This document shows, piece by piece, positions 36,001 to 45,000 of a DNA stretch of 63,885 bases. Within the stretch, counting starts at the first letter, position 1; every line of letters begins with the position of its first letter. The stretch lies in the IMG/VR virus record IMGVR_UViG_2718218139_000008. One strand, given 5' to 3'. Source of the stretch: a virus. Lineage: Duplodnaviria; Heunggongvirae; Uroviricota; Caudoviricetes. The position numbers were made by a program.

Positions 36001-39000
36001 GAAGCGTTGATGAAAATGCCAGAAGTTAACGCCATGTATCCGGAGCTTAAGCTGCATGCCATCGGGTGGGTTAAGCATAAATGTAAGCCTGGTGCCAAAT
36101 GGCCAGAAATTCAGGCAGAGATGCGCATCTGGAAAAAACGTCGCGAAGGTGAACGCAGGGAAACTGGAAAATACACGTCTGTTGTAGATCTCGCACGCAC
36201 CAGAGTTAACCAGCAGCTCACCGAAAACTCAGCAGCAAAAATCAACCCTGTCACTGCTGCCATTCGTCGCGAATACAAGCAGACATGGAAAACAATGGAT
36301 GAAGAGCTGGCTTACGCTCTCTGGCCTGGTGATATTGATGCCGGAAACATTGACGGCAGCATCCATCGCTGGGCAAAAAATGAAGTTATCGACAAGGATC
36401 GCGAAGACTGGAAGCGTATCTCTGCATCAATGCGCAAACAGCCTGATGCACTTTTATACAGCCGTCAGACTATTTTTGGCCTTGTCCGTGAACGTCCGAT
36501 CGACATTCATAAAGATCCCGTGGCGCTGAACAAATACATCACTGAATACCTGACTACAAAGGGCGTGTTTGAAAATGAAGGAACAAATCAGAGCACAACT
36601 AATACTCTCCCGTCGCCAGTACCAGAAGCTGATGCAGTGGAAACGGCAATGCCGGACAACGAAAAAACCGAATGCGAAGTGGAAGCCGAACCATCTGTAG
36701 AGCGTGAGGGACCGTTCTATTTCCTCTTCACCGACAAGGATGGCAAAAAATACGGTCGCGCAAACAAACTTTCTGGTCTGGATAAGGCGCTGGCTGCCGG
36801 GGCTACTGAAATCACGAAAGAAGAATATTTTGCCCGCAAAAACGGTACATACACGGATTCACAACAAAATACTGATGCATCTGACACGACCGCACAACCA
36901 GACCTGGTAAAAGTTACCGCTGACGAAGTAAACAAAATTATGCAGGCAGCCAGTATCAGCCAGCCTGACGCTAATAAGTTGCTCGCTGCATCACGTGGTG
37001 AATTTGTTGAAGGGATTAGCGACCCGAATGATCCGAAATGGGTTAAGGGGATTGAAACCTGCGATTCTGTGAACCAGAACCAGCAAGAAACGGAACAGAA
37101 CGACCAGAAAGCAGAACAAAACAGCCAAAATGCGTTACAAGACGAGCCAGAAACGAAACAATCCGAACCAGTAGCGCAACAGGAACCGGAAAAAGCCTGC
37201 ACAGCCTGCGATCAGACCGGCGGCGGCAACTGTCCTGACTGTGGCGCGGTGATGGGCGACGCAACATACCAGGAAACATTCGATGAAGAGAATCAGGTTG
37301 AAGCTCAGGAAAATGATCCGGAGGAAATGGAAAGTGCCGGACTCCCGAACAAGGAGTGCACCGAAGGCGATCAACATGCCAATGACAATAATGAAACAGG
37401 CGAGACAGCAAATTCCTTAATTAAGATGAACGGTCATCATGAAAACACATCCACCAGCAGGTTGTGGCACCATCTGATGATTGACCTTGAAACAATGGGA
37501 AAAAATCCTGATGCGCCAATAAACGCTCTGGCCGGTAAGTTTTTTGATCCGACAACCGGAGAGATGGGACCAGAATTCAGCAAAACCATCGCTCTGGAAA
37601 CTGCTGGCGGAGTCATCGACCGTGACACAATTAAGTGGTGGCTGAAACAGTCACGCGAAGCACAATCCGCCATTCTTACCGATGAAATCCCGTTGGATGA
37701 CGCACTGCTGCAGTTCAGGGAATTTATCGAGGAAAACTCCGGTGAATTTTTTGTTCAGGTCTGGGGAAATGGAGCCAACTTCGACAACGTGATTTTACGC
37801 CGTTCATATGAACGACAGGAAATCCCCTGCCCCTGGCGTTACACCAACGATCGCGATGTAAGAACGATGGTTGCTCTGGGACTGGTGATGGATTTCGATG
37901 CCCGCAACGTCATCACATTTGAGGGTGAACGCCATAATGCCCTGCACGATGCACGTTACCAGGCAAAATACGTTTCAGCTATCTGGCAAAAACTGTTCCC
38001 GAATCAGGCTGATTTTTAATGTTCAACCGTCGCCGGTTGTGGCTGGTATTCTGCAACCGGCGCTCATCTGATGTAAGAGATAAAAAGCGATGAACGAAGT
38101 AATCATGATTGTCTCTCCCGGCAAATGGGTATCCGAAGAGCAACTAATAGCACTGAAAGGAATAAAAAAGGGAACGCTAAAAAAAGCCAGGGAAAAATCG
38201 TTTATGGAAGGAAGGGAATATAAGCATGTCGCTCATGACGGTATGCCATGGGATAACAGTCCATGTTTTTACAACCTGGAAGAAATTGATCGCTGGATTG
38301 AGCGCCAGGCATCGGCAAGACCAAGACGTCATCTTACTTGACTAAAAGCAACACTAACCAATGAGGGAAGCTGAAATGAAATATCCTACAGGAGTGGAAA
38401 ACCATGGTGGGAAATTACGTATCTGGTTTGTTTATAAAGGCGTAAGAGTCAGGGAAAATCTGGGGGTTCCTGACACAGCAAAAAACAGACGCATTGCAGG
38501 TGAGCTACGCGCGTCTGTTTGTTATGCAATAAAAACCGGTGTTTTCGACTATGCAAAACAGTTTCCATCATCACGCAATCTGGAAAAATTTGGTGAGGCC
38601 AGGCAAGATTTAACCATAAAAGAACTGGCTGAAAAATTTCTGGCACTGAAAGAAACCGAAGTCGCAAAAACATCACTCAACACATACCGTGCCGTCATCA
38701 AAAATATCCTGAGCATAATCGGCGAAAAAAATCTTGCATCGGCGATTAATAAAGAAAAACTGCTGGAGATACGTAAAGAACGTAAGCGTACAGCCTGAAC
38801 CGTCTGGTCAGAATCTGACGAATTAGACAAAGTGGTGTCCACCAAATAAGTAGTGGGAACCAAAGTATCAGATATGCAGAAAAATGTGACTCCCGGCAGG
38901 CGAAAAGGCTGCCCTAATTATCCTCCCGAATTTAAACAGCAGCTCGTTGCTGCCTCCTGTGAACCCGGGATATCCATCTCAAAACTTGCTCTTGAAAATG

Positions 39001-42000: not shown

Positions 42001-45000
42001 CATACGTCAGGTCCGCCACCCAGACCTGATTTGGTGCTGTAGGAGCGAACGTCTGGTTCAGCAGATTTGGCGCAACTGGCAGATTGTGGTTCGAGTTCGT
42101 AGTCGCTCTGAACTTGCGTTTCTGCTTACAGCGTAGCCTTAGCTCCTTACGAAGACGTGCCAGTCGGTCACGACCAACGATGATGCCATTCTCTGCCAGC
42201 TCCGTCTGGAGCCGCCGGGTTCCATATGTTTCGCGAGTGCGGATATGTGCCACCTTAATCTCCAGTTTTAGCCGCTCATCACTTTGTTTTCTGTCTGAGG
42301 GTTCATGCTGTACCCAGTTGTAATAACCGCTCCTGGATACACCAAATACCTGACACATCGCTTCAATGGGAAATTGTTGTCGCCATTGTTCGATTAACGC
42401 GTATTTTTCAGCGACTCCTGTGCAAAATACGCTGTTGCTTTTTTTAATATATCTCGCTCAAGGCGAGCTTCATTTAACGCCTTACGCAGTTGCAGAATTT
42501 CAGATTCCAGTTCAGCCACCGTGCGGGAACCAGGAGTACCGAGCCCTTTTCTGGCGGCGGTAACCCATTGTCCTAAAGTGCCTTCAGGAAGAGATAATCG
42601 GGAAGCGCCTTCACTGATCGAAAGTTGATTTTCAAGAACCGTTCTGACAGCTTCGGCTTTGAACTCTTTAGAGTAACGTTGGGTTTTTCTGCTCATTATT
42701 AGCTCCTTCTGATGCCATTCTATTTCAGGAAGGAGTGTCCGTTAAACTCAGGCTACCTCATTCTGTTTATACAGGCGTTCGCCCCGGTGAGCTATGAGGT
42801 GTACTGGCAATAGCGGACACTACCATTTGTTCTTTTTTTAGTAAGCGTAAACTGACCGCCGTATGTAGCCATCAGACGAGAATTGGTAACTTAGACGCCC
42901 ATCTGATATAGACGGACATCTAAGTATGGAATTACAGGACTGGCGAAAAGAACCTCGTAAAAACTATTCGAATGAATTCAAACTTCGTATGGTGGAACTG
43001 GCATCACAACCTGGAGCTTGTGTTGCACAGATTGCACGTGAAAATGGCGTCAATGATAATGTTATTTTCAAATGGCTCAGGCTCTGGCAGAACGAAGGGC
43101 GTGTTTCGCGGCGTCTTCCGGTAACGACCTCTTCTGACACTGGCGTTGAATTATTACCTGTAGAAATAACGCCGGATGAGCAGAAAGAACCTGTGGCGGC
43201 CATTGCGCCGTCTTTATCCACTTCCACTCAGACCAGAGTCAGTGCCAGTTCCTGCAAGGTGGAATTCCGTCACGGTAACATGACGCTGGAAAATCCATCG
43301 CCAGAGCTGCTCACGGTGTTGATCCGTGAACTGACCGGGAGGGGAAGATGATCTCACTCCCATCAGGTACCCGTATCTGGCTCGTTGCCGGCGTTACCGA
43401 TATGCGTAAATCCTTCAACGGACTGGGAGAACAGGTACAACATGTGCTGAATGATAATCCCTTCTCCGGTCACCTGTTTATCTTCCGTGGCCGACGGGGT
43501 GACACCGTCAAAATTCTTTGGGCTGATGCTGATGGTCTGTGCCTGTTCACCAAACGCCTGGAGGAAGGCCAGTTTATCTGGCCTGCGGTACGTGACGGCA
43601 AGGTATCCATTACCCGCTCGCAACTGGCAATGCTCCTCGATAAGCTGGACTGGCGTCAGCCAAAAACATCCAGCCGTAACTCACTGACAATGTTGTAAAA
43701 AACTCCTGACCGCATTATAAAAACGGTCATGAGTCAGAAATACCTCATTCGCATCGCAGAGCTGGAAAGATTGCTCTCTGAGCAGGCTGAAGCCCTCCGT
43801 CAGAAAGACCAGCAACTGAGTCTGGTTGAAGAGACGGAAGCCTTCCTGCGCTCTGCACTGACACGTGCCGAAGAAAAGATCGAAGAAGATGAACGGGAAA
43901 TAGAACATCTGCGGGCTCAGATAGAAAAACTGCGCCGGATGCTGTTCGGTACCCGTTCTGAAAAACTGCGTCGTGAAGTTGAACTGGCTGAGGCTCTGCT
44001 GAAACAACGTGAACAGGACAGCGATCGTTACAGTGGGCGGGAAGACGATCCTCAGGTTCCCCGCCAGTTGCGACAGTCGCGCCATCGTCGTCCGTTACCG
44101 GCACACCTTCCCCGAGAAATACACCGCCTGGAGCCAGAAGAAAGCTGTTGCCCGGAGTGTGGCGGTGAGCTGGATTATCTGGGGGAAGTCAGCGCTGAAC
44201 AGCTGGAACTGGTGAGCAGTGCCCTGAAAGTGATCCGCACAGAACGGGTAAAAAAAGCCTGTACAAAATGTGACTGTATTGTTGAAGCACCGGCGCCGTC
44301 CCGCCCGATAGAGCGTGGTATCGCGGGCCCCGGATTACTTGCCCGCGTGTTAACGGGAAAATACTGCGAACATCTGCCACTGTATCGTCAGAGTGAAATC
44401 TTTGCCCGCCAGGGTGTCGAACTGAGCCGGGCCTTACTCTCCAACTGGGTTGACGCGTGCTGCCAGTTAATGACACCGGTGAATGATGCCCTGTACCGTT
44501 ATGTAATGAACACCCGCAAGGTTCACACTGATGACACACCGGTAAAGGTACTGGCACCGGGTCAGAAAAAGGCGAAAACAGGGCGTATCTGGACGTATGT
44601 CCGGGATGATCGCAATGTGGGTTCGTCATCTCCTCCAGCGGTCTGGTTCGCGTACTCGCCGAACCGGCAGGGGAAACACCCGGAGCAACACCTCCGCCCC
44701 TTCCGGGGTATCCTGCAGGCGGATGCGTTCACAGGTTACGACAGGTTGTTCAGTGCAGAACGTGAAGGTGGTGCACTGACAGAAGTTGCGTGCTGGGCCC
44801 ATGCCCGGCGAAAAATCCACGATGTATACATCAGCAGCAAAAGTGCGACGGCAGAAGAAGCCCTGAAGCGAATCAGTGAACTGTACGCCATCGAGGATGA
44901 AATACGGGGATTACCGGAGTCAGAGCGTCTTGCCGTCAGGCAGCAGCGAAGCAAAGTGTTACTGACGTCGCTGCATGAATGGATGGTGGAGAAGAATGGT

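Follow-up and report, generated by a model that had tools for sequence, protein, structure and literature searches.

Two defective lambda-like prophages, A on the left and B beside it, are contained in the window (the whole 64-kb stretch of DNA analysed, 63,885 nucleotides), which is DNA of an STEC O145:H25-type Escherichia coli, and the integrase gene of A has been broken by insertion sequences (ISs) and has lost its 3' end. The history that we favour, with a probability of roughly 88%, is that two tandem lambdoid prophages occupied a Qin-type site, that the integrase gene of A received two simple IS insertions, and that a deletion leaving an IS600 scar converted the array into a fixed remnant. 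The locus is a case of ordinary, well-understood prophage decay, i.e., known biology with no new mechanism. More than 50 IS600 copies per genome have been published for the O145:H25 lineage, in which the gene for the IS-excision enhancer is also disrupted (PMC5567499), and the prophage IS elements of the lineage have been noted as immobilising those prophages (PMC7437938). By self-BLAST we found seven IS600 copies in the window, all of them identical. In strain EN1I-0044-2 the locus is part of the PHASTER region 'P02' (88.7 kb), and neither study (PMC5567499; PMC7437938) dissects it in the main text.

The interrupted integrase gene of prophage A

The layout was established by self-BLAST and by reading the junctions directly. 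The features of the integrase region, together with the integrase fragment of prophage B used for comparison, are the following.

38090..38341, plus strand: intact excisionase-like gene, 83 aa
38376..38781, plus strand: segment 1 of integrase A (codons 1-135 and 1 nt), closing with the left 8-bp copy of the target-site duplication (TSD) TAAAGAAC
38782..41223, plus strand: ISEc8 (IS66 family), 2442 bp
41224..41496, plus strand: segment 2 of integrase A, opening with the right TSD copy (8 bp); unique part 41232-41496
41497..42760, minus strand: IS600 copy 4 (IS3 family), 1264 bp
42761..42794, plus strand: integrase A segment 3, 34 bp (a 3-bp TSD copy and 31 new bp)
60045..60956, minus strand: codons 1-304 of the prophage B integrase, in inverted position and cut off at IS600 copy 6

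The excisionase-like gene, which immediately precedes the integrase, matches PF06806 (DUF1233, putative excisionase; E=1.6e-31) and is annotated in relatives as 'excisionase family protein'. Segment 1, which has a further in-frame ATG upstream at 38361, codes for the arm-type DNA-binding domain (Arm-DNA-bind_2, PF12167, residues 4-67, E=1.5e-24), and a weak SAM-like domain was detected at residues 83-185 of the integrase. The gene is then split by ISEc8, flanked by the exact 8-bp TSD TAAAGAAC at 38774-81 and 41224-31. The chance of such an exact flank match is 1.5e-5, although the reconstruction of the reading frame (below) is more decisive. The element is 99.4-99.9% identical to PGAP-annotated ISEc8 and has the marks of the IS66 family, namely the 8-bp TSD, 22-bp terminal inverted repeats (IRs) GTAAGCG.../...CGCTTAC, and intact tnpA, tnpB and tnpC (133, 115 and 512 aa; PF05717 TnpB_IS66, PF03050 DDE_Tnp_IS66 and PF13817) with a DDE transposase.

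Segment 2 continues the frame to codon 224 and is 92% identical by self-BLAST to the prophage B integrase (60558-60284). The segment ends in TTC, the left TSD copy of IS600 copy 4; this is a simple insertion in which both TSD copies can be read (41494-96 and 42761-63), as they can for copy 2 (CTC) and copy 3 (CCC). Copy 4 has 27-bp imperfect IRs (TGAGGTG.../...CCTCA), an orfA of 100 aa and an orfB of 272 aa with the rve domain (PF00665). The 3-bp TSD, the imperfect IRs ending in TG...CA and the orfA plus orfB (rve DDE) organisation are those of IS600 in the IS3 family, and relatives carry the annotation 'IS3-like element IS600 family transposase, programmed frameshift'. Segment 3 ends at codon 234 (…TGVRPGEL), is in frame with segments 1 and 2, and matches the B copy (60288-60253) at 33 of 36 positions (E=2.6e-7).

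Excising ISEc8 and IS600 copy 4, each with one TSD copy, gives an uninterrupted frame of 702 nt that shows a gapless alignment with the first 234 residues of intact 426-aa IntQ/Qin-type tyrosine integrases (98% identity) and is also collinear, again without gaps, with the prophage B copy. The sequence-only reading had described an integrase interrupted three times, by an IS66-family element with an 8-bp TSD, by an IS600 with the TSD TTC and, after a further 34 bp of integrase, by another IS600. The three disruptions and the two TSDs are confirmed at every junction, removal of the first element restores the frame, the 34 bp are present (3 of them being the duplicated TTC), and the alignment against the B copy that it proposed as a check bears out the collinearity, which extends to intact integrases.

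The catalytic domain (PF00589, Phage_integrase) of this lambda-type integrase (IntQ/mEp460 type) spans residues 201-392 in the intact protein; it is undetectable in A and half present in B, and neither copy has the complete R-K-H-R-H/W-Y set, since A ends at residue 234 of 426 and B at 304. Codons 235-426, lost from A, comprise the catalytic domain except the residue aligned with the first conserved Arg (single catalytic residues were assigned by eye from the alignment).

The IS600 scar at the junction with prophage B

Segment 3 is followed by a composite structure that extends to the holin gene of prophage B.

42795..42840, minus strand: first 46 bp of IS600 copy 5 (left IR end), left flank CTA
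42841..45372, plus strand: ISEc23 (IS66 family), 2532 bp, nested in IS600 copy 5, 8-bp TSD TTTTTTTA
45373..46598, minus strand: remainder of IS600 copy 5, right flank CCC
46599..46718, minus strand: fragment of the prophage B holin (class II, P21 S-type, 68 aa when complete), codons 1-40

The first 46 bp of copy 5 are 100% identical to the other IS600 left ends, and their last 8 bp are the left TSD of ISEc23. The latter (99.8% identical to PGAP-annotated ISEc23) has 24-bp terminal IRs and intact tnpA, tnpB and tnpC, which with its TSD place it in the IS66 family, and taking it out restores the IS600 sequence. Copy 5 itself is flanked by CTA on the left and by CCC after 46598. These mismatched flanks, without a TSD, indicate that copy 5 is a rearrangement scar and not a simple insertion. 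The earlier description was right in giving this copy no TSD but overlooked the nested ISEc23; the far end is actually at 46598, and the feature had been closed at 42794, 3.8 kb short of the copy 5-holin junction under discussion. As the two IS600 ends are separated by 34 bp, an active tandem IS dimer was also considered, and dismissed on account of the target DNA found between the ends; tandem junctions of IS3-family elements have spacers of a few bp, without target DNA.

On its far side copy 5 does abut a fragment of the prophage B holin, as had been proposed. The fragment matches positions 1-39 of the 64 of the class II holin profile (PF04971, E=2.7e-16) and aligns to the intact holin of prophage A (19404-19610; full length, E=1.3e-32); its frame ends in a TGA provided by the IS600 end. 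A 40-aa holin product returned by a look-up in 171 blocks turned out to reflect contig-end breaks in intact holins and not the IS600 junction.

Between codon 234 of integrase A and codon 40 of holin B there is only a TSD-less IS600, itself carrying ISEc23. An intact relative of B (99.3% identical) continues past the holin with genes for lysis, terminase, head and tail, which take up more than 20 kb. The missing DNA would comprise integrase codons 235-426, the internal att site and late genes of B, for which we infer a size of more than 20 kb. That copy 5 marks a deletion of the integrase 3' end, the attachment site and the left part of B, as the sequence-only reading held, is supported by the context, i.e., the tandem order, the outer flanks and the TSD-less IS600.

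Attachment site and tandem arrangement

The att core was defined by a three-way comparison of attP (phage mEp460), attL (E. coli GE3) and the window.

1276..1286, plus strand: att core GAAATCCATAA, at the junction of the ydfJ-like gene and prophage A, overlapping the MFS transporter start codon

At the left window end a ydfJ-like MFS transporter gene is joined to phage DNA at this core, of which there is a single exact copy in the window and none in the rspB-side locus. The window ends inside IS600 copy 7; beyond that copy, a sister strain (99.92% identical) has rspB at the right border of the array and has lost the att site on this side. An intact int-attL-rspB configuration is found in E. 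coli GE3, rspB being the other side of attB for this type of integrase. The outer flanks are thus the two sides of one attB, which together with the orientation of A and B indicates that both prophages lie head-to-tail in one att site. The arrangement fits a tandem lysogen at the ydfJ/rspB site in which the internal and the rspB-side att sites would have been deleted. The identity between A and B varies from 87 to 100% by segment in a mosaic pattern, which rules out a recent segmental duplication as their origin; by sequence they are distinct mosaic phages.

A single att core and the lack of an intact integrase in either prophage mean that the array cannot excise by site-specific recombination, and its character as a fixed cryptic remnant, devoid of a functional integrase, is supported by the sequence. 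The earlier statement that prophage A is locked in place was, if anything, understated, with the B integrase also truncated and one att core left in the window.

Proposed history of the locus

ISEc8 would have inserted after integrase nucleotide 406 and IS600 (copy 4) after nucleotide 671; the IS600 situated 31 bp further on, third in the gene, would be the deletion scar that joins integrase codon 234 to B holin codon 40. The deletion most likely arose by homologous recombination between an IS600 in the integrase (TSD CTA) and an IS600 of the same orientation in the B holin (TSD CCC). Lost with it would be the catalytic portion of the integrase, the internal att site and the genes of B for lysis, packaging, head and tail. 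ISEc23 presumably entered copy 5 after the deletion. Hybrid copies and the order of events are unreadable from the sequence because all IS600 copies are identical, so that both the order and the recombination mechanism given here are what we infer. The reading frames are otherwise clean, which suggests that the decay is recent.

The same deletion might have been produced by transposition, if the IS600 resident in the holin attacked a target in the integrase and generated an intramolecular adjacent deletion. Both mechanisms predict that a single IS copy remains, with an old flank on one side and a new one on the other, and a target 31 bp from another IS600 is compatible with local hopping. Nevertheless, transposition in the IS3 family is copy-out/paste-in via a circular intermediate, a process of which adjacent deletions are not a normal product, and abundant identical copies more commonly give rise to deletions by RecA-dependent recombination. 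The sequence cannot discriminate between the two, and on these general grounds we regard transposition as the less likely route, with a small chance of being correct.

A different explanation is that copy 5 is the product of an IS600-IS600 inversion or translocation, the integrase 3' end, the att site and the late genes of B being elsewhere in the chromosome and B having been placed beside A secondarily. There is a precedent in this window: IS600 copy 6 (58781-60044, in minus orientation) and copy 7 (in plus orientation, from 62686 to the end of the window) bound the segment 60045-62682, which holds the B integrase fragment and lies inverted, with the flanks GTA/TAC exchanged; turning it back restores an exonuclease ORF. 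Also in favour are the more than 50 IS600 copies of the lineage (PMC5567499). Against this, copy 5 is oriented like copies 1-4 and 7, and direct copies recombine to give deletions; A and B are ordered and oriented just as in a tandem double lysogen, with outer flanks that are the two sides of one attB; and neither an integrase 3' fragment nor a second att core was found within the 64 kb of the window or the following 7 kb. We consider this explanation improbable.

An assembly artefact, in which reads collapsed over identical 1.26-kb IS600 repeats created the A-B junction, is less probable still: there are seven identical copies in 64 kb, and short-read assemblies of relatives break at these elements (one ends inside ISEc8), but the structure lies within a single 5.2-Mb contig and a second contig of more than 1 Mb has the same neighbourhood, copy 5 is individually tagged by the nested ISEc23 with its perfect TSD, and a collapse would not make a clean in-frame 34-bp island of integrase between two IS600 ends.

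Occurrence in other genomes

The structure is present with 100% identity in the 5.2-Mb contig of assembly GCA_003015325.1, and the second contig (>1 Mb) was reported by the index as having the same gene neighbourhood. None of 5,426 complete E. coli genomes has at least 80% of the whole 9.1-kb structure, the matches being to unrelated IS clusters only. The xis-int segment matches in 3,706 of the 5,426 genomes. A match of ~2 kb in strain 2002-3211 was discarded as BLAST running through an unrelated IS600/IS66 junction. Junction-specific searches with the int-ISEc8 and IS600-holin junctions retrieved no genome sharing them, only independent insertions at other sites, and the segment 3/IS600 junction had no exact match among GTDB species representatives. 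The undeleted tandem arrangement was found in no genome; the ancestral state is reconstructed, not observed. No RNA families were found by Rfam in 35000-49000.

Comparison with known systems

A close parallel is Qin (Kim), a cryptic prophage of E. coli K-12 with a defective integrase, intQ, at the ydfJ/rspB site. The integrase family and the att site are the same here (tested on strain GE3 and phage mEp460), integrase A being 93-94% identical in nucleotides to the intact allele beside rspB, and the end state, a non-excisable remnant with a damaged integrase, is also shared. Unlike Qin, the present locus has two tandem prophages that decayed by four IS insertions, IS600-associated deletions and an inversion. 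With the IS629/IS600-driven structural polymorphism of EHEC (PMC5567499; PMC7437938 and its reference 39) it shares the expansion of IS3-family elements, the concentration of insertions in prophages, IS-associated deletions and prophage fixation, although PMC5567499 and PMC7437938 treat the phenomenon genome-wide and here a single locus is described.

The locus illustrates an IS600 burst through which two lambdoid prophages became a single 60-kb block, fixed and unable to excise, in a strain background with a broken IS-excision enhancer. Prophage-calling software merges this block into a single 88.7-kb "prophage", and boundaries based on integrase or att fail. The description may be of use in the curation of O145:H25 genomes, and the IS600 junctions as strain-typing markers.

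ISEc8 in other IntQ-type integrases

We have found three IntQ-type integrases in other E. coli (O157:H7 PV15-279, EC45 and AHS8C65RI) that are likewise split by ISEc8. The IS is 99.9% identical, has the orientation seen here and is flanked in every case by an 8-bp TSD. The insertions are at nt 500, 556 and 577, compared with nt 406 here, and are independent events. In these strains the 3' part of the integrase, lost here, has been retained, and in EC45 and AHS8C65RI rspB comes next. The four insertions (nt 406, 500, 556 and 577 of 1281) span 172 nt, are in one orientation, belong to four unrelated E. coli lineages and sit each in an A/T-rich octamer. That the 5' third of IntQ-type integrases is a preferred landing pad for ISEc8 is a tentative idea to which we attach a low likelihood; if it stemmed from a preference of the IS for such targets, or from selection for fixing Qin-type prophages in place, ISEc8 would have acted repeatedly in the domestication of prophages at this site. 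More remote is the idea that expression of the 140-aa arm-binding fragment would hamper incoming phages that have the same type of integrase. This fragment is a fusion product, with the ORF of segment 1 reading into ISEc8 and stopping at 38798. It occurs in public assemblies, in which the 145-aa ORF from the upstream ATG and a 502-aa TTG ORF have no gene call.

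Insertions in the integrase of prophage A

The organization of the region was obtained by self-BLAST of 38000-47000 against the window, every junction being read directly. The order on the plus strand is as follows.

Features of the integrase A region (plus-strand order)
38090-38341, excisionase-like gene, intact
38376-38781, integrase A segment 1 (in-frame ATG upstream at 38361)
38782-41223, IS66-family element (ISEc8), 2442 bp
41224-41496, integrase A segment 2
41497-42760, IS600 copy 4, 1264 bp
42761-42794, integrase A segment 3
42795-42840, IS600 copy 5, first 46 bp
42841-45372, second IS66-family element (ISEc23), 2532 bp
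45373-46598, IS600 copy 5, rest
46599 onward, DNA 94.5% identical to 19492-19873 of the other prophage

The assigned ends of the elements coincide exactly with terminal inverted repeats. Copies that PGAP annotates as ISEc8 share 99.4-99.9% identity with the 2442-bp element, and an annotated ISEc23 shares 99.8% with the 2532-bp one; both elements have intact tnpA, tnpB and tnpC genes bearing IS66 Pfam domains. The 1264-bp element is IS600, found in seven identical copies within the window. The sequence-only reading had described an integrase interrupted three times, with target-site duplications (TSDs), and the junctions bear this out, ISEc8 being flanked on both sides by the exact repeat TAAAGAAC and IS600 copy 4 by an exact TTC. 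Elsewhere, 3-bp TSDs were found on copies 2 (CTC) and 3 (CCC), copies 1 and 5 had none and copies 6 and 7 had swapped flanks.

Removal of each IS together with one TSD copy gave an open frame of 702 nt. The 234 reconstructed residues aligned without gaps to residues 1-234 of the 426-aa integrases of phage mEp460 and E. coli GE3 (98% identity; in GE3 the intact gene adjoins rspB) and also to the prophage B copy within the window. These alignments show that the three pieces are one integrase gene, collinear with intact integrases. There were no stop codons or frameshifts in the integrase A frames, so the gene seems to have been undamaged until the ISs inserted. Pfam detected the arm-type DNA-binding domain (residues 4-67) but no longer the catalytic domain (residues 201-392 of the intact protein), and by eye the sole surviving catalytic residue is R230 (in TGVRPGEL), which lines up with the first of the conserved arginines.

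ISEc8 has also entered integrase genes of this IntQ/Qin type independently in three other strains (at nt 500, 556 and 577 of the gene), making four insertions with the one described here (nt 406), all in one orientation and with A/T-rich TSDs (TAAAGAAC, AATCTTAA, GTTTAAGG and AAAGGAAT).

ISEc8 insertions in IntQ-type integrases
38782-41223, window
5076-7517, L009 (locus of another strain)
about 4130-6600, L010 and L011 (loci of two further strains)

They may reflect a hotspot, in a search that was biased toward the same orientation and toward positions within 815 bp. This clustering in the same part of the gene is the only mildly unusual point of the locus.

Two prophages in a probably shared attachment site

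The window opens with an MFS transporter gene (TIGR00883, ydfJ-like; 1..1284, minus strand). Comparison of the attP of mEp460, the attL of GE3 and the window defined an att core, GAAATCCATAA, at 1276-1286, which overlaps the start codon of this gene and separates bacterial DNA on the left from phage DNA on the right. Prophage A extends from this core to the integrase: minus-strand late genes come first, early genes follow, and exo, xis and int close the series on the plus strand. From a holin fragment (46599) onward, prophage B repeats this arrangement. In the sister assembly QQVX (EN1I-0044-2, STEC O145:H25), 99.92% identical to the window over 13.8 kb, IS600 copy 7 runs, past the right end of the window, straight into rspB, ynfA, ynfB and speG, the ydfJ-like and rspB sides being the two halves of a single attB. 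Since the two flanks are halves of one attB and the gene order is shared, A and B probably form a head-to-tail pair in one site. With segments ranging from 87% to 100% identity, the two are distinct phages and did not arise by duplication.

A probable deletion at IS600 copy 5

IS600 copy 5 had been reported to lack a TSD and to abut a prophage B holin. Both points stand (its flanks are CTA and CCC), but the junction is at 46598 and not near 42794, since an unmentioned ISEc23, flanked by the exact repeat TTTTTTTA, is nested 46 bp into the copy. The fragment beyond (46599-46718, minus strand) covers the first 40 residues of a class II holin (phage-21 type, 68 aa, PF04971) and takes its stop codon from the IS600 terminus; prophage A has an intact paralogue at 19404-19610. 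Comparison with intact holins suggests a CCC TSD (GGG as read on the coding strand) for the original insertion in the B holin.

Between codon 234 of integrase A and codon 40 of the B holin there should be 579 bp of integrase, an internal att site and every B gene downstream of the holin, all of them missing. In a prophage of E. coli O121 RM8352, which matches B at 99.3% identity over holin and nanS, the holin is followed by ydfR, lysozyme, Rz, terminase, capsid, portal and tail genes over >20 kb, from which we infer a deletion that would likewise exceed 20 kb. The proposed loss of the integrase 3' end, the att site and part of prophage B is thus supported by the tandem context and the TSD-less copy. 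Recombination of two IS600 copies in direct orientation would produce a deletion and leave one TSD-less survivor, as seen in copy 5, although a transposition-linked adjacent deletion could have occurred instead.

Immobilization of the array

The integrase of prophage B is truncated too, ending at residue 304 at IS600 copy 6. Reading of 58781-63885 of the window and 7023-12191 of L005, the rspB-side locus of EN1I-0044-2, indicated that 2.6 kb of prophage B (60045-62682: the 5' part of int, xis and the 3' part of exo) are inverted between the oppositely oriented copies 6 and 7. The 3-bp flanks have changed places (GTA/TAC), and re-inverting the segment gives a continuous exonuclease frame collinear with the 823-aa protein of A. 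In EN1I-0044-2 (L005 6990-7050) copy 7 adjoins an rspB without its last 73 bp, and about 629 bp are missing there (int B codons 305-426, attL and the rspB 3' end), so that B has also lost its att site. Within the window there is a single att core, the sole one left in the array, and the rspB side in the sister strain has none. In prophage A, moreover, IS600 lies inside the lysozyme gene, and a copy lacking a TSD lies in the morphogenesis region. The prophage is locked in place more firmly than the sequence-only reading had stated, to which the nested ISEc23, the truncated and inverted B integrase and the single remaining att core are additions.

Distribution and other features of the prophages

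Over 20.4 kb the window matches a 5.2-Mb contig of GCA_003015325.1 at 100% identity. Among the complete E. coli genomes searched, none has the exact junctions of this locus. In EN1I-0044-2 the region sits within an 88.7-kb PHASTER "prophage P02", and the same study described IS600 as the dominant IS of O145:H25 and IS elements as immobilising mobile elements (PMC7437938). Lorenz et al. found >50 IS600 copies in O145:H25, with the IS-excision enhancer gene disrupted by IS600 (PMC5567499). The locus is a classic example of prophage decay through ISs, and the IS600 expansion of its lineage was known before; it is not novel.

IS600 copy 1 (6155-7418, flanks GGG/CAG) lies between tail-fibre-like and head genes of prophage A, its lack of a TSD suggesting a further IS600-associated loss of tail genes. 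Copy 3 (TSD CCC) interrupts the lysozyme gene of prophage A (17141-18404 and 18402-18716), whose product resembles by eye a SAR-type endolysin. Between this gene and the holin lie about 690 bp that are in part unassigned, at a place where a relative carries a ydfR-family gene. Directly upstream of the holin both prophages encode a 616-aa DUF1737/SASA (NanS-p-like) esterase (20059-21909 and 47011-48861, minus strand), the two copies being 98.6% identical, a similarity well above that of the integrase and exonuclease modules nearby. Prophage A has a HigB-toxin (PF09907) and HTH antitoxin-like gene pair in its early region (32564-33228, minus strand), and in the ORF adjoining its portal gene a 162-bp repeat occurs three times in tandem (7416-8010, 87-100% identity).
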